Below, piece after piece: positions 3,094-61,170 of a stretch of 64,000 nt of DNA. The translations under genes were made by a program, and so were the position numbers. The notes beneath the pieces were generated by a model. The model was not told the DNA's origin. It made no database searches and saw nothing but the letters and a program-made list of their open reading frames with translations. Position 1 is the first letter of the stretch. Each line of letters opens with the position of its first letter. Source of the stretch: Escherichia coli (GTDB taxonomy: Bacteria; Pseudomonadota; Gammaproteobacteria; Enterobacterales; Enterobacteriaceae). The DNA lies in assembly GCF_003991155.1 (NCBI RefSeq), contig NZ_CP031293.1, one strand, 5' to 3'.

Positions 3094-3112
3094 ATATTGC
3101 TGCTTAAATTAA

Positions 3113-3149
3113 ACGCCTCTGTCTGAAAAGATGGGGGCGTTTTTATTTT
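3113..3149 (+). terminator. putative Rho-independent terminator after cysH
   Basis: GC-rich imperfect hairpin (acgcctc...gggggcgt) followed by TTTTTATTTT. Confidence 0.45.
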
Positions 3150-3357
3150 GCGAGCAGGATTCCTGATTTTAAACGTGAACGCCGCAGGAAGAATCAACAG
3201 GCATAGAATGGCGTTGGGTGCTTGAGGCTGTCTGGCGTTAAGCATTCGCGAGGTTCCAGATGGACAAAAGCCCCAGGCGATATTTCTATCAACCTGAGGC
3301 CAGCGTTCGAACCTAAGCAATTCGGATGTTAGTCTCTTCTTTGCAGGGAGGCAAGAC

Positions 3358-3510
3358 ATGCTGACAAAATATGCCCTTGTGGCAATCATCGTACTGTGTT
3401 GTACAGTACTGGGATTCACGTTGATGGTAGGCGACTCGTTGTGTGAGTTGAGTATCAGAGAACGTGGTATGGAGTTTAAGGCAGTTCTCGCTTACGAATC
3501 GAAGAAGTAG
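3358..3510 (+). CDS. Hok/Gef-family type I toxin (50 aa, small membrane peptide)
   Basis: ORF below the 60-aa track cutoff, translated by hand: [50 protein letters not shown]; hydrophobic N-terminal helix plus SLCE and AYES motifs shared with Hok/Gef/RelF; GGGAGG Shine-Dalgarno 7 nt upstream. Confidence 0.8.
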
Positions 3511-3515
3511 CCACC

Positions 3516-3575
3516 ACGCGGGGTAAAACCCCGCGTACTGAATTGTGATTGTTTGGCCTCCTGCACCCCTTTTTT
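3516..3575 (+). terminator. hok 3' structure: perfect 9-bp stem-loop, fold-back element complementary to transcript 5' region, then T-tract
   Basis: ACGCGGGGU/ACCCCGCGU stem at 3516-3536; GCCUCCUGCACCC (3557-3569) can pair 11/13 with GGGUGCUUGAGGC at 3216-3228; TTTTTT at 3570-3575. Confidence 0.55.
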
Positions 3576-3635
3576 ATACTCTGTTTCTGGTGGCATTGAT
3601 TTCCTGCAGGCAAGGGAGTAATCATTTCAAACCCA

Positions 3636-12361: not shown

Positions 12362-12500
12362 AACGTGAGGAAATACCTGGATTTTTCCTGGTTATTTTGC
12401 CGCAGGTCAGCGTATCGTGAACATCTTTTCCAGTGTTCAGTATGGTGCCTTGCACGGTAATTATGTCACTGGTTATTAACCAATTTTTCCTGGGGGATAA

Positions 12501-13640
12501 ATGAGCGCGGGAAGCCCAAAATTCACCGTTCGCCGCATTGCGGCTTTGTCACTGGTTTCGCTATGGCTGGCAGGCTGTTCTGACACTTCAAATCCACCGG
12601 CCCCGGTCAGCTCCGTTAATGGCAATGCGCCTGCAAATACCAATTCTGGTATGTTGATTACGCCGCCGCCGAAAATGGGGACGACGTCTACAGCTCAGCA
12701 ACCGCAAATTCAGCCGGTACAGCAGCCACAAATTCAGGCCACTCAACAACCGCAAATCCAGCCGGTGCAGCCAGTAGCTCAGCAGCCGGTACAGATGGAA
12801 AACGGACGCATCGTCTATAACCGTCAGTATGGGAACATTCCGAAAGGCAGTTATAGCGGCAGTACCTATACAGTGAAAAAAGGCGACACACTTTTCTATA
12901 TCGCCTGGATTACTGGCAACGATTTCCGTGACCTTGCTCAGCGCAACAATATTCAGGCACCATACGCGCTGAACGTCGGTCAGACCTTACAGGTGGGGAA
13001 TGCTTCCGGTACGCCAATCACTGGCGGAAATGCCATTACCCAGGCCGACGCAGCAGAGCAAGGAGTTGTGATCAAGCCTGCACAAAATTCCACCGTTGCT
13101 GTTGCTTCGCAACCGACAATTACGTATTCTGAGTCTTCGGGTGAACAGAGTGCTAACAAAATGTTGCCGAACAACAAGCCAACTGCGACCACGGTCACAG
13201 CGCCTGTAACGGTACCAACAGCAAGCACAACCGAGCCGACTGTCAGCAGTACATCAACCAGTACGCCTATCTCCACCTGGCGCTGGCCGACTGAGGGCAA
13301 AGTGATCGAAACCTTTGGCGCTTCTGAGGGGGGCAACAAGGGGATTGATATCGCAGGCAGCAAAGGACAGGCAATTATCGCGACTGCAGATGGACGCGTT
13401 GTTTATGCCGGTAACGCGCTGCGCGGCTACGGTAATCTGATTATCATCAAACATAATGATGATTACCTGAGTGCCTACGCCCATAACGACACAATGCTGG
13501 TCCGGGAACAACAAGAAGTGAAGGCGGGGCAAAAAATAGCAACCATGGGTAGCACCGGAACCAGTTCAACACGCTTGCATTTTGAAATTCGTTACAAGGG
13601 GAAATCCGTAAACCCGCTGCGTTATTTGCCGCAGCGATAA
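12501..13640 (+). CDS. nlpD: murein hydrolase activator lipoprotein NlpD (LysM + M23 peptidase-like)
   Basis: 379-aa ORF; lipobox LAGC; Q/P-rich repeat region; C-terminal M23 domain. Confidence 0.93.
12706..12777 (+). repeat. three in-frame tandem 24-bp repeats inside nlpD encoding (QQPQIQPx)3
   Basis: cagcaaccgcaaattcagccggta / cagcagccacaaattcaggccact / caacaaccgcaaatccagccggtg. Confidence 0.8.
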
Positions 13641-13702
13641 ATCGGCGGAACCAGGCTTTTGCTTGAATGTTCCGTCAAGGGATCACGGGTAGGAGCCACC
13701 TT

Positions 13703-14695
13703 ATGAGTCAGAATACGCTGAAAGTTCATGATTTAAATGAAGATGCGGAATTTGATGAGAACGGAGTTGAGGTTTTTGACGAAAAGGCCTTAGTAGAAGA
13801 GGAACCCAGTGATAACGATTTGGCCGAAGAGGAACTGTTATCGCAGGGAGCCACACAGCGTGTGCTGGACGCGACTCAGCTTTACCTTGGTGAGATTGGT
13901 TATTCACCACTGTTAACGGCCGAAGAAGAAGTTTATTTTGCGCGTCGCGCACTGCGTGGAGATGTTGCCTCTCGCCGCCGGATGATCGAGAGTAACTTGC
14001 GTCTGGTGGTAAAAATTGCCCGCCGTTATGGCAATCGTGGTCTGGCGTTGCTGGATCTTATCGAAGAGGGCAACCTGGGGCTGATCCGCGCGGTAGAGAA
14101 GTTTGACCCGGAACGTGGTTTCCGCTTCTCAACATACGCAACCTGGTGGATTCGCCAGACGATCGAACGGGCGATTATGAACCAAACCCGTACTATTCGT
14201 TTGCCGATTCACATCGTAAAGGAGCTGAACGTTTACCTGCGAACCGCACGTGAGTTGTCCCATAAGCTGGACCACGAACCAAGTGCGGAAGAGATCGCAG
14301 AGCAACTGGATAAGCCAGTTGATGACGTCAGCCGTATGCTTCGTCTTAACGAGCGCATTACCTCGGTAGACACCCCGCTGGGTGGTGATTCCGAAAAAGC
14401 GTTGCTGGACATCCTGGCCGATGAAAAAGAGAATGGTCCGGAAGATACCACGCAAGATGACGATATGAAGCAGAGCATCGTCAAATGGCTGTTCGAGCTG
14501 AACGCCAAACAGCGTGAAGTACTGGCACGTCGATTCGGTTTGCTGGGGTACGAAGCGGCAACACTGGAAGATGTAGGTCGTGAAATTGGCCTCACCCGTG
14601 AACGTGTTCGCCAGATTCAGGTTGAAGGCCTGCGCCGTTTGCGCGAAATCCTGCAAACGCAGGGGCTGAATATCGAAGCGCTGTTCCGCGAGTAA
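13703..14695 (+). CDS. rpoS: RNA polymerase sigma factor RpoS (sigma-38)
   Basis: 330-aa ORF from [11 protein letters not shown]; ORF-track start at 13667 rejected; codon 33 is GAG (Glu). Confidence 0.95.
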
Positions 14696-14815: not shown

Positions 14816-15224
14816 CTATTTGCTCATCATCTTGCGCACCAGCTGCATAAACAGCTCCTGCTCTTCTGCACTCAAACGCCCCAAAAATTCCTCATCCACA
14901 CTGTCACCAATCGGTATCGCCGCAGCAAGTACCTTTTCTCCTTCGGCAGTCAGCCAGACAAAGCGTCGCCGCTTATCAGCAGAGTCATGTTCTCGTCTGA
15001 CTAAGCCACGATTTTCCATTCGTGCCAACATTTCTGCCAGCGTTGCTTTGGTGCTGACGGCTGCTTCTATCAGTGCCACCTGTTCGATACCAGGTTTATC
15101 AGCAATGGCGCGCATCACCGCGTACTGTGGTTTGGTCAGATCAGGTAACTCGTGCTGCCAGCGAGCCGTGTGCTGCTGAAAAAGCTGTCGTAACTGATGG
15201 AACGCTTTATTTCGTAACGCCATG
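14816..15224 (-). CDS. MarR/SlyA-family transcriptional regulator
   Basis: Winged-helix MarR-like sequence; ATG at 15224 has a GGAG Shine-Dalgarno, the longer 15256 start does not; divergent from the decarboxylase operon. Confidence 0.75.
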
Positions 15225-15369: not shown

Positions 15370-15963
15370 ATGAGACTGATCGTCGGGATGACAGGGGCCA
15401 CCGGAGCGCCTCTTGGTGTGGCATTACTGCAAGCGCTGCGGGAGATGCCGAATGTCGAGACTCATCTGGTGATGTCGAAGTGGGCGAAAACCACCATTGA
15501 ACTGGAAACGCCTTACAACGCCCGCGATGTTGCTGCCCTCGCAGACTTCTGCCATAACCCGGCGGATCAGGCCGCAACCATCTCCTCAGGTTCCTTTCGT
15601 ACCGACGGCATGATCGTTATTCCGTGCAGTATGAAAACGCTCGCCGGTATCCGTGCCGGTTACGCCGATGGCCTGGTGGGGCGCGCGGCGGACGTCGTGC
15701 TCAAAGAAGGCCGCAAACTGGTGCTGGTGCCGCGTGAAATGCCGCTTAGCACAATCCATCTCGAAAATATGCTCGCACTTTCGCGCATGGGCGTGGCGAT
15801 GGTGCCGCCGATGCCTGCCTTTTATAACCATCCCGAAACGGTAGATGACATTGTCCACCACGTGGTAGCCCGCGTGCTGGATCAATTTGGCCTCGAACAT
15901 CCTCACGCCAGGCGCTGGCAAGGATTGCCGCAGGCCCGGAATTTTTCTCAGGAGAATGAATAA
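15370..15963 (+). CDS. UbiX-family flavin prenyltransferase (decarboxylase subunit B-like)
   Basis: 197-aa ORF starting MRLIVGMTGATGA, typical UbiX/Pad1 N-terminus; first of three tightly linked genes. Confidence 0.8.
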   Translation: MRLIVGMTGATGAPLGVALLQALREMPNVETHLVMSKWAKTTIELETPYNARDVAALADFCHNPADQAATISSGSFRTDGMIVIPCSMKTLAGIRAGYADGLVGRAADVVLKEGRKLVLVPREMPLSTIHLENMLALSRMGVAMVPPMPAFYNHPETVDDIVHHVVARVLDQFGLEHPHARRWQGLPQARNFSQENE

Positions 15964-17390
15964 TGGCATTTGATGATTTACGCAGCTTTTTACAGGCGCT
16001 CGACGACCATGGGCAATTGCTGAAAATCAGCGAAGAGGTGAACGCGGAACCGGATCTGGCAGCAGCAGCTAACGCCACCGGGCGTATCGGCGACGGCGCG
16101 CCCGCGCTGTGGTTTGATAATATTCGCGGCTTTACCGATGCCCGCGTGGCAATGAACACCATCGGTTCCTGGCAGAACCACGCGATTTCCCTCGGCCTGC
16201 CGCCAAATACCCCGGTTAAAAAACAGATTGATGAGTTTATCCGCCGCTGGGATAACTTCCCGATTGCCCCGGAGCGCCGCGCCAATCCGGCCTGGGCGCA
16301 GAACACCGTTGATGGCGACGAGATCAACCTGTTCGATATCCTGCCGCTGTTTCGTTTAAACGATGGCGATGGCGGTTTCTATCTCGACAAAGCGTGCGTG
16401 GTTTCCCGCGATCCGCTTGATCCGGATAACTTCGGCAAGCAGAACGTCGGCATCTACCGTATGGAAGTGAAGGGTAAGCGTAAGCTCGGTCTGCAACCGG
16501 TGCCGATGCACGATATCGCCCTGCATCTGCATAAAGCGGAAGAGCGCGGTGAAGATCTGCCGATTGCCATCACCCTGGGTAACGACCCGATCATCACCCT
16601 GATGGGGGCCACGCCGCTGAAATACGATCAGTCCGAGTACGAAATGGCGGGCGCGCTGCGCGAAAGTCCGTACCCGATCGCCACCGCTCCGCTGACCGGT
16701 TTTGATGTGCCGTGGGGCTCGGAGGTGATCCTCGAAGGAGTCATCGAAAGCCGCAAACGCGAGATTGAAGGGCCATTCGGTGAGTTTACCGGCCACTACT
16801 CCGGCGGGCGCAATATGACCGTCGTGCGCATTGATAAAGTCTCTTATCGCAGCAAACCCATTTTTGAATCGCTCTATCTCGGGATGCCGTGGACGGAAAT
16901 CGACTACCTGATGGGGCCAGCCACCTGTGTGCCGCTGTATCAACAACTGAAAGCTGAGTTCCCGGAAGTGCAGGCGGTAAACGCCATGTACACCCACGGC
17001 CTGCTGGCGATTATCTCCACCAAAAAACGCTACGGTGGCTTTGCCCGCGCGGTGGGCCTCCGTGCGATGACCACGCCGCACGGTCTGGGCTACGTGAAGA
17101 TGGTGATTATGGTCGATGAAGACGTTGATCCGTTCAACCTGCCGCAGGTGATGTGGGCGCTCTCTTCGAAAGTGAACCCGGCAGGGGATTTGGTGCAGTT
17201 GCCGAATATGTCCGTGCTGGAACTCGACCCTGGCTCAAGTCCGGCGGGGATCACCGACAAGCTGATTATCGACGCCACCACGCCTGTCGCCCCGGACAAC
17301 CGTGGTCACTACAGTCAGCCGGTGGTGGATTTACCGGAAACCAAAGCCTGGGCTGAAAAACTGACCGCTATGCTGGCCGCACGTCAATAA
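15963..17390 (+). CDS. UbiD-family non-oxidative aromatic acid decarboxylase (subunit C-like)
   Basis: 475-aa ORF; start overlaps upstream stop; UbiD-like length and sequence. Confidence 0.8.
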   Translation: MAFDDLRSFLQALDDHGQLLKISEEVNAEPDLAAAANATGRIGDGAPALWFDNIRGFTDARVAMNTIGSWQNHAISLGLPPNTPVKKQIDEFIRRWDNFPIAPERRANPAWAQNTVDGDEINLFDILPLFRLNDGDGGFYLDKACVVSRDPLDPDNFGKQNVGIYRMEVKGKRKLGLQPVPMHDIALHLHKAEERGEDLPIAITLGNDPIITLMGATPLKYDQSEYEMAGALRESPYPIATAPLTGFDVPWGSEVILEGVIESRKREIEGPFGEFTGHYSGGRNMTVVRIDKVSYRSKPIFESLYLGMPWTEIDYLMGPATCVPLYQQLKAEFPEVQAVNAMYTHGLLAIISTKKRYGGFARAVGLRAMTTPHGLGYVKMVIMVDEDVDPFNLPQVMWALSSKVNPAGDLVQLPNMSVLELDPGSSPAGITDKLIIDATTPVAPDNRGHYSQPVVDLPETKAWAEKLTAMLAARQ

Positions 17391-17400
17391 GGAGAACAAG

Positions 17401-17637
17401 ATGATTTGTCCACGTTGTGCCGATGAACAGATTGAAGTGATGGCGAAATCGCCGGTAAAAGATGTCTGGACGGTATATCAGTGCCAGCATTGCCTTTATA
17501 CCTGGCGCGATACCGAACCGCTGCGCCGCACCAGCCGCGAACATTATCCCGAAGCGTTCCGCATGACGCAGAAAGATATTGATGACGCGCCGATGGTGCC
17601 GAGCATCCCGCCGCTGCTGGCGGAAGGTAAGTGTTAA
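17401..17637 (+). CDS. small decarboxylase subunit D-like protein with CxxC...CxxC motif
   Basis: 78-aa ORF MICPRCADEQ...CQHCLYTW, 10 bp downstream of the UbiD-like gene. Confidence 0.65.
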   Translation: MICPRCADEQIEVMAKSPVKDVWTVYQCQHCLYTWRDTEPLRRTSREHYPEAFRMTQKDIDDAPMVPSIPPLLAEGKC

Positions 17638-21671: not shown

Positions 21672-22100
21672 TTACGCTTTGGTGGCAATCAGGATGGCTG
21701 ATGCTTTGATCAATGCAATAACGCGCGAGCCAGTGGTGAGTTTCATTTCATCCTGACTTTCATTTGTTACCACTGCCACAATTTCAAAACCCGCATCCGT
21801 TTTGATATGGACAGTGGCGTTCACTGCGCCTTCGGTGATTGTCGACACGCTGCCAGCAAACTGGTTGCGAGCAGAGAATTTCAGTCCACAGTCTTCCGTT
21901 GCCAGTGTTACCCACGGGGCTTTAATCAGGGCAATCGCTTCTTTCCCTTTTGCCAGACCAAGAGCCTGCTGGCTGCTGTGTGTAACAATTGCCACCAGCT
22001 TTGCACCACCTGCCAGCGTCAGTTCTACTTCATCATTCACAGCGCCCATTGCTACTGCGCTAACTGTTCCGGTTAATTGATTTCTTGCTGAAACTGCCAT
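21672..22100 (-). CDS. tandem TOBE (Mop) domain molybdate-binding protein (molbindin)
   Basis: 142-aa product from MAVSARNQLTG; two SARNQ-containing repeats; AGGAGG Shine-Dalgarno before ATG at 22100. Confidence 0.75.
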   Translation of the reverse strand: MAVSARNQLTGTVSAVAMGAVNDEVELTLAGGAKLVAIVTHSSQQALGLAKGKEAIALIKAPWVTLATEDCGLKFSARNQFAGSVSTITEGAVNATVHIKTDAGFEIVAVVTNESQDEMKLTTGSRVIALIKASAILIATKA

Positions 22101-36009: not shown

Positions 36010-36783
36010 TTGAACATCAAAACAGGGATGTGCGCTTTTTTATTGAGCTTAGTGCTGCCTGCACAGGCCACCAGCTTTACCGAATATCTGCCAATGAGTG
36101 ACAGCGAATACGCGCAAAAGCGGGCGCTGAAACCTCTCCTGACTATGCCTTATTATACCGAGCAAACCTGGCATTTTAGAAAAGTGGGCGTTGCTGGCGT
36201 GACGCTTGAGAAGATGCCAAATGATGATAGTGAATGGCAATTGAACGGTAAAGATCGCGCCGGTAAATCCTGGTCTGTGCCTGTGGGGGTGCTGCAAAAT
36301 ATGGCGGGTAATGCGCAACTTTACCGTGCCGATCTTGATCGTAACGGCATTCAGGATCTGGTTATCTGGCGGGGTATTTCAGGAAATGGTCTGGCACCTA
36401 ACGCGTTTTTGATTCTGATGACCTTTAATCAGCAAGGTCGCCCGTGTGTTTTTCAGTCCGATAGTTTTTATACCGCAAGTGAAACTGGCATTGATGATTT
36501 GCTGGATTTACAAAGGAATGGCCACACGCAATTGCTGGATATGCAGTTTGATTCCGGTTACTGGATAACCAGTCTGTATCAGGTAAAAGACGCCAAATGG
36601 CAGCGTGTTCACGGCTGGTTTGGCAAGTTAAGCTATCCCGCGCTCACGCGTTTTACTTATACCCCCAACCGTAAACTCGTCCTCAAACCCATCGCCGGGC
36701 GCGACCCGCAATCGGAAGATCTGGCGCTGACGCAGCGTTGCTTGATAAAGGGGGATGTTCTTGATGGGGTGAACCAGCTCTGA
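36010..36783 (+). CDS. hypothetical exported protein (predicted signal peptide, cleavage near AQA-TS)
   Basis: 257-aa ORF 24 bp after hycI, same strand; TTG start gives MNIKTGMCAFLLSLVLPAQA (ATG at 36028 is an alternative); no recognised family. Confidence 0.55.
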   Translation: MNIKTGMCAFLLSLVLPAQATSFTEYLPMSDSEYAQKRALKPLLTMPYYTEQTWHFRKVGVAGVTLEKMPNDDSEWQLNGKDRAGKSWSVPVGVLQNMAGNAQLYRADLDRNGIQDLVIWRGISGNGLAPNAFLILMTFNQQGRPCVFQSDSFYTASETGIDDLLDLQRNGHTQLLDMQFDSGYWITSLYQVKDAKWQRVHGWFGKLSYPALTRFTYTPNRKLVLKPIAGRDPQSEDLALTQRCLIKGDVLDGVNQL

Positions 36784-36798
36784 TGCCAAACGCCAGAT

Positions 36799-36862
36799 TG
36801 CCCGATGCGCAACGCTTATCGGGCCTTGTAGGCCGGATAAGGCGTTCACGCCGCATCCGGCA
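36799..36862. repeat. BIME: two adjacent REP-type palindromic units
   Basis: ttgcccgatgcgcaacgcttatcgggcc and gtaggccggataaggcgttcacgccgcatccggca. Confidence 0.7.
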
Positions 36863-36869
36863 CGGTTAC

Positions 36870-60578: not shown

Positions 60579-60671
60579 GGTGAGGTGGCCGAGAGGCTGA
60601 AGGCGCTCCCCTGCTAAGGGAGTATGCGGTCAAAAGCTGCATCCGGGGTTCGAATCCCCGCCTCACCGCCA
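60579..60671 (+). tRNA. serV: tRNA-Ser (anticodon GCU)
   Basis: 93-nt cloverleaf with long variable arm; GGTGAGG...CCTCACCGCCA; anticodon loop CTGCTAA. Confidence 0.93.
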
Positions 60672-60674
60672 TTT

Positions 60675-60751
60675 GCATCCGTAGCTCAGCTGGATAGAGT
60701 ACTCGGCTACGAACCGAGCGGTCGGAGGTTCGAATCCTCCCGGATGCACCA
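60675..60751 (+). tRNA. argV: tRNA-Arg (anticodon ACG), copy 1
   Basis: 77-nt GCATCCGTAGCTCAGCTGGATAGAG...CGGATGCACCA; anticodon loop CTACGAA; copy-to-gene-name assignment is tentative. Confidence 0.93.
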
Positions 60752-60815
60752 TCTCTTACTTGATACGGCTTTAGTGGCGGTATCAAAAAATCTGCAGTAA
60801 AGTAAGTTTCCCGAT

Positions 60816-60892
60816 GCATCCGTAGCTCAGCTGGATAGAGTACTCGGCTACGAACCGAGCGGTCGGAGGTTCGAATCCTCCCGGATGCACCA
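60816..60892 (+). tRNA. argY: tRNA-Arg (anticodon ACG), copy 2
   Basis: Identical 77-nt sequence; name assignment tentative. Confidence 0.93.
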
Positions 60893-60954
60893 TCTCTTAC
60901 TTGATATGGCTTTAGTAGCGGTATCAATATCAGCAGTAAAATAAATTTCCCGAT

Positions 60955-61031
60955 GCATCCGTAGCTCAGCTGGATAGAGTACTCGGCTACGAACCGAGCG
61001 GTCGGAGGTTCGAATCCTCCCGGATGCACCA
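60955..61031 (+). tRNA. argZ: tRNA-Arg (anticodon ACG), copy 3
   Basis: Identical 77-nt sequence; name assignment tentative. Confidence 0.93.
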
Positions 61032-61093
61032 TCTCTTACTTGATATGGCTTTAGTAGCGGTATCAATATCAGCAGTAAAATAAATTTCCCGAT

Positions 61094-61170
61094 GCATCCG
61101 TAGCTCAGCTGGATAGAGTACTCGGCTACGAACCGAGCGGTCGGAGGTTCGAATCCTCCCGGATGCACCA
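61094..61170 (+). tRNA. argQ: tRNA-Arg (anticodon ACG), copy 4
   Basis: Identical 77-nt sequence; name assignment tentative. Confidence 0.93.

Follow-up and report, generated by a model that had tools for sequence, protein, structure and literature searches.

The window, by which we mean the whole stretch of 64,000 nucleotides analyzed here, extends from cysJ to gshA on the E. coli chromosome and carries an uninterrupted, full-length rpoS frame (330 aa) directly 3' of nlpD (Table 1). Translation of the window starts this frame at an ATG at 13703 and ends it with a TAA closing at 14695, giving 330 sense codons, and reading of the region from 13600 to 14000 revealed a GGAG Shine-Dalgarno-like motif 5' of the ATG. 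A longer frame opening at an upstream ATG (13667) appears in the mechanical ORF listing; the interval 13703-14695 is the one that translates to the canonical 330-residue RpoS. The annotation of isolate LWY24 places rpoS (WP_000081550.1) at coordinates equal to this interval, and the window gene shares 100% nucleotide identity with annotated rpoS in many genomes. Open reading frames on the opposite strand over rpoS (e.g., 13701-13952, 83 aa) were considered and rejected as mechanical six-frame ORFs within a strongly conserved gene, and at the Rfam gathering threshold no RNA family was matched in the rpoS leader or gene.

Table 1. Coordinates of rpoS, its parts and the neighboring features in the window.
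Feature	Position	Strand	Description	Basis
rpoS CDS	13703..14695	+	330 codons plus TAA; RpoS (σS), RefSeq WP_000081550.1	frame, translation, profiles, nucleotide identity
rpoS codon 33	13799..13801	+	GAG (Glu), ancestral and majority allele; CAG (Gln) in MG1655, TAG (amber) in W3110	
Acidic N-terminal tail of RpoS, residues 1-55	13703..13867	+	5' of all recognized sigma-70 domains; contains residue 33	
nlpD and rpoS upstream region	12501..13702	+	379-aa ORF from 12501; annotated nlpD 12546 to 13640	
MarR-family regulator	14816-15223	-		annotation
Hydroxyarylic acid decarboxylase VdcB/C/D	15370-17637	+	NCBIfam VdcB, VdcC and VdcD above cut-offs	annotation, NCBIfam
Tandem Mop/TOBE (molybdenum-pterin-binding) gene	21672-22100	-	142 aa; between ygbA and fhlA; c3292 in PMC4209514	

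The assignment of the product to RpoS is supported by two NCBIfam equivalog profiles, NF004207 (604.6 bits against a cut-off of 394) and TIGR02394 (480.7 bits against 378.7), and by PDB searches, in which the top matches were E. coli RpoS chains. The sigma-70 regions follow one another in the expected order, all above Pfam gathering scores: region 1.2 (PF00140, residues 56-88), region 2 (PF04542, 94-163), region 3 (PF04539, 174-248) and region 4 (PF04545, 262-315). From the reading frame, the gene is predicted to yield a full-length, 330-residue σS, whose expression and activity we infer.

Counting 96 nucleotides from the ATG (13703 + 96) places codon 33 at 13799-13801, where the window reads GAG in the context V31-E32-E33-E34-P35. 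The original prediction had described a full-length rpoS of 330 codons with GAG at codon 33, and translation confirmed both its coordinates and its frame; the observation is real. Residue 33 belongs to the acidic N-terminal tail, which precedes sigma regions 1.2 to 4. The boundary of this tail is given by the start of Pfam region 1.2 at residue 56; the TIGR02394 alignment begins at residue 48, and alignments to RpoS chains from species other than E. coli in the PDB begin only at residue 52.

Codon 33 also falls within a short repeat. A perfect 10-bp direct repeat, GAAGAGGAAC, is present at 13796-13805 and 13826-13835, and GAG at codon 33 is part of the first copy. The second copy lies 30 nt downstream and in frame, so that the two copies encode E32-E33-E34 and E42-E43-E44; a K-12 CAG or TAG at codon 33 renders the first copy imperfect. 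Strain ECOR70 has been reported to carry a deletion of RpoS amino acids 32-41 (PMC3074542), the size of which is as expected for slippage between the two repeats.

We aligned the rpoS regions of MG1655 (NC_000913.3) and W3110 (NC_007779.1) with the window gene. At gene nucleotide 97 the window has G (GAG), MG1655 has C (CAG) and W3110 has T (TAG), and this is the sole non-synonymous difference; seven further differences from both K-12 strains, at nucleotides 163, 264, 354, 462, 573, 732 and 819, are all synonymous. K-12-lineage alleles are recognized by C or T at nucleotide 97, and the window has neither. The expectation that K-12 derivatives would show CAG or TAG at this codon was therefore borne out, in that GAG is not the codon of either K-12 reference in the alignment and the frame assignment holds. 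The MG1655 gene (b2741), an rpoS(33Q) allele, resembles that of the window in identity, length and adjacency to nlpD, with 985/993 nucleotides identical, but differs by CAG (Gln) instead of GAG (Glu) at codon 33 and by the seven synonymous changes, and its downstream neighbor is ygbN where the window has a MarR-family gene. The rpoS(Am33) gene of W3110, EMG2, WG1 and J53 is again the same gene, on the same K-12 haplotype as in MG1655, but with a TAG stop at codon 33 that the window does not have; for W3110, the RefSeq annotation is that of a pseudogene interrupted by an internal stop. According to Subbarayan & Sarkar 2004, as cited in PMC5454202, the Am33 allele has lower σS activity and gives an N-terminally truncated product from an internal secondary translation start.

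Differences from MG1655 extend upstream of the gene, with 16 substitutions in 12501-13702 and 17 in the compared span 12362-13702. No substitution relative to MG1655 was found in the last 161 nt before the rpoS ATG (13542-13702). The main rpoS promoter and the long leader lie inside nlpD, and the 161 nt before the ATG presumably contain the translational control region of that leader.

Distribution and ancestry of the codon-33 alleles

The polymorphism of codon 33 in K-12 rpoS is already known from Atlung 2002 and Subbarayan & Sarkar 2004, both as represented in the papers that cite them, and the codon has also been covered by surveys of VTEC (PMC2700278) and ECOR (PMC3074542) strains. Stocks of K-12 vary at this position between TAG, CAG, TAT and GAG, and GAG is common in natural non-K-12 isolates (PMC2700278); relative to K-12, C97G/Q33E is found in almost every ECOR strain sequenced (PMC3074542). 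To place the window allele among sequenced genomes, 75-mers centered on codon 33 were compared by megablast with 5,426 complete E. coli genomes, 5,414 of which gave a match. The exact 75-mer with GAG was found in 4,813 genomes (88.9% of 5,414), that with CAG in 173 (3.2%) and that with TAG in 121 (2.2%), leaving 307 genomes (5.7%) with none of the three. GAG is therefore present in at least 88.9% of the complete E. coli genomes and is the expected outcome in the window; for a single codon, chance is the wrong test, and the relevant point is the majority status of GAG.

The origin of the two minor alleles was judged by strain name in 60 genomes of each kind, out of 173 with CAG and 121 with TAG. 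All 60 CAG genomes among the matches listed derive from K-12; they include MG1655 sublines, BW25113, DH10B, MC4100, BW2952 and HST04. Most of the 60 TAG genomes listed derive from K-12 as well (including W3110, J53, NCM3722, HMS174 and S17-1), with a few of uncertain origin; among the 60 are the early K-12 stocks EMG2 and WG1, and also BLR(DE3), which received its recA-queE segment from K-12 by transduction and with it an rpoS that has the nonsense mutation at codon 33 (PMC5454202).

The 307 genomes outside the three exact 75-mers were inspected through a spread listing and four fetched examples. FWSEC0005 carries GAG with one synonymous neighboring change. TUM10828 (locus L096:1141-2133) also carries GAG, and its rpoS differs from that of the window at 30 nucleotides and at 0 amino acids, an identity of all 330 residues that indicates very strong purifying selection on RpoS. 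GAG is thus the default state at codon 33, with a true share that is probably well above 89%. The other two examples were of different kinds: codon 33 is CTG (Leu) in TUM23337 (locus L098:1141-2133), a K-12-like strain developed in the laboratory, and in FDAARGOS_1058 (locus L099:1141-2149) the rpoS frame is shifted by a 16-bp tandem duplication, AAAGGCCTTAGTAGAA, whose end falls at codon 32.

Beyond E. coli, species-representative genomes were scanned with a DNA pattern anchored on the conserved P35-L46 stretch, with codons 32-34 left unconstrained; the scan recovered 90 loci, more divergent RpoS N termini falling outside this sample. Glu occupied the codon-33 position in 90/90 Enterobacteriaceae species genomes (88 GAG, 2 GAA), among them Escherichia albertii, other Escherichia, Salmonella enterica subspecies, Citrobacter, Enterobacter, Leclercia, Lelliottia, Kosakonia, Pluralibacter and Cedecea. 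The window has what distinguishes a natural, ancestral Glu33 allele, namely GAG or GAA at the codon in the common RpoS protein, and WP_000081550.1 is also the RpoS of LWY24, BL21(DE3), TUM10828 and FWSEC0005. In this wild-type protein of natural isolates and BL21(DE3), all 330 residues, Glu33 included, are identical to those of the window and the nlpD-rpoS arrangement is the same; the synonymous haplotypes differ from that of the window by 8 nucleotides in BL21, 9 in FWSEC0005 and 30 in TUM10828. BL21(DE3) carries the K-12-type nucleotide at all 7 synonymous rpoS sites, yet has GAG.

Because Glu is found in all 90 species genomes and BL21(DE3) has GAG on a K-12-type haplotype, the CAG and TAG alleles arose within the K-12 pedigree from an ancestor with GAG. 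Early in that pedigree, gene nucleotide 97 would have changed from G to T, producing the amber TAG, and later single-base changes in some K-12 sublines may have given rise to sense codons, CAG (Gln) in MG1655 and CTG (Leu) in one laboratory strain. We infer the order GAG to TAG to CAG, in single-base steps, which fits the presence of TAG in EMG2 and WG1 and agrees with Atlung et al. 2002 as that work is cited in PMC2700278. The odd one at codon 33 is the K-12 reference, not the window sequence. We are highly confident that the rpoS of the window is the ordinary wild-type gene of an E. coli outside K-12, and that codon 33 reads GAG because Glu33 is ancestral in Enterobacteriaceae RpoS, a reading that none of the results contradicts; in the lineage of the window, no change at this codon would have occurred. 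Codon 33 can accordingly serve as a quick marker for K-12-derived DNA, through CAG, TAG and rarer variants such as CTG.

Genomic background of the window

Some K-12 strains have been reported to carry Glu (GAG) at codon 33 (Atlung 2002, as cited in PMC2700278), and if such a stock were the source of the window, the codon would be silent on its background. We regard this origin as extremely improbable, given what surrounds the codon. Relative to MG1655, 7 synonymous changes in rpoS and 17 changes upstream already argue against it, as does the gene content. Between rpoS and pphB-mutS, the segment 14816-17637 holds MarR-VdcBCD genes in place of the ygbI-ygbN genes that occupy this interval in MG1655, W3110 and BL21, and this segment is a marker of a non-K-12 background independent of the codon. 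Further along, a Mop/TOBE gene separates ygbA from fhlA; it is missing in MG1655 and BL21(DE3), where the ygbA-fhlA gap is ~36 bp. None of the characters of a K-12 background (ygbI-ygbN at the pphB-rpoS interval, the K-12 synonymous haplotype, fhlA adjoining ygbA) was thus found in the window. K-12 presumably carries its CRISPR-Cas I-E locus at the cysH-iap site; no type I-E CRISPR repeat was found within the 64-kb window, and a K-12-type CRISPR-Cas I-E locus is therefore absent from it.

The relatives of the window point the same way. Only 41 of the 5,426 complete genomes show at least 99% identity over the 24 kb around rpoS, and the 25 of these that were listed have as their sources chickens, cattle, pigs, pets, humans and wastewater, with no K-12 or laboratory strain among the matches listed. 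Among the nearest genomes, LWY24 was isolated from chicken feces; it is identical over window positions 1-39999 and shows a single mismatch (62611) over 32001-64000, or 1 base in 64 kb. That sole differing base lies within gshA.

Polymorphism of the mutS-rpoS region is likewise well known, and the arrangement seen here has a described counterpart. The o454-negative 'pattern I' (O157:H7/EHEC1 type) of the mutS-rpoS (o454-nlpD) region comprises a slyA-like MarR gene, kpdB/C/D (VdcBCD) and pphB-mutS without o454/ygbN (PMC4209514), and the window is alike. It differs in that a c3292-like Mop/TOBE gene is also present in the ygbA-fhlA interval; PMC4209514 lists this gene for CFT073 and E2348/69 and omits it for EDL933. 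That the window derives from a background other than K-12, resembling that of natural isolates, is well founded, the main weight lying on the linked synonymous haplotype and the rpoS-mutS gene content and less on codon 33.

This conclusion upholds one part of the suggestion that an intact Glu33 marks a non-domesticated background, in that the background is indeed non-K-12 and resembles that of natural isolates. The codon alone, however, is no indicator. BL21(DE3), a heavily domesticated B strain, has GAG and an identical RpoS (WP_000081550.1), and because it shares this protein and some K-12 stocks are reported with GAG, codon 33 is no marker of non-domestication. The same observation shows that Glu33 is compatible with domestication, and the source of the window could in principle be a laboratory strain, domesticated from a lineage other than K-12, in which Glu33 persists alongside laboratory adaptation, as in BL21(DE3). 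This reading is very unlikely. The genomes nearest to the window, which spans 64 kb without rssB, crl or spoT, are field, clinical and wastewater isolates; LWY24 departs from it at one position over 64 kb, and of the 41 near-identical genomes, the 25 listed include no laboratory strain. A BL21-like source in particular is opposed by the different rpoS haplotype of BL21 and by its retention of ygbI-N. The observation has little significance beyond annotation: it confirms a stretch of non-K-12 E. coli DNA with an uninterrupted, canonical rpoS.

Codon 33 and the general stress response

The original prediction had also linked the intact Glu33 to a non-domesticated general stress response background, and this part found no support, as an intact Glu33 frame reveals little of that response. 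Published work indicates that the E33 and Q33 forms are similar in activity, the Q33E difference being described as one that 'has similar functional activity' (PMC3074542, citing Atlung 2002). Levels of σS, moreover, differ among strains with the same RpoS sequence and are not simply the result of rpoS sequence, and the rpoS-defective natural isolates, ~20-30%, arise through other mutations (PMC3074542). Codon 33 marks neither 'wildness' nor the strength of the stress response.

One could nevertheless propose that Glu33 and Gln33 are functionally different, and that the codon marks a stress response physiologically unlike that of MG1655. Two observations speak for such a difference: the invariance of Glu33 in 90/90 Enterobacteriaceae species under a pattern that left the codon unconstrained, and the divergent E. 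coli allele whose 30 nucleotide differences bring no amino-acid change, in keeping with strong purifying selection on RpoS. They have to be weighed against the similar activity of Q33E and the variation of σS levels beyond rpoS sequence (PMC3074542), and against the position of residue 33 outside all sigma-70 domains, and we consider a functional difference unlikely. A related and rather more speculative idea, to which we give little credence, is that the acidic N-terminal tail including residue 33 may have a conserved, unappreciated role, for example in delivery to RssB/ClpXP, in Crl-assisted holoenzyme assembly or in promoter escape. If so, the Q33 reference of MG1655 would be a subtly non-native σS. 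Any effect of such a role is unlikely to be large because published comparisons report similar activity.

Other features of the window

Apart from the rpoS region, Rfam matches in the window were limited to sok and five tRNAs. The cysH-iap gap (3094-3635) contains only a hok/sok toxin-antitoxin locus, with the sok RNA at 3216-3373 (RF01794, 110 bits) and the Hok/Gef CDS at 3358-3510; at the same site BL21(DE3) has a CRISPR remnant, IS421 and hok. Between hycI and ascB, positions 36028-36783 (+) encode a 251-aa hypothetical protein with a signal-peptide-like N terminus, for which neither Pfam nor NCBIfam gave a match and which BL21(DE3) lacks. Its gene is present at ≥80% coverage in 1,461/5,426 complete E. 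coli genomes, and its 3' flank (~36750-36869) is a repeat with dozens of copies per genome. The tRNA genes form a cluster at 60579-61170 (+), 3' of csrA, consisting of tRNA-Ser(GCT) followed by 4 tandem tRNA-Arg(ACG), which is the ordinary E. coli arrangement.
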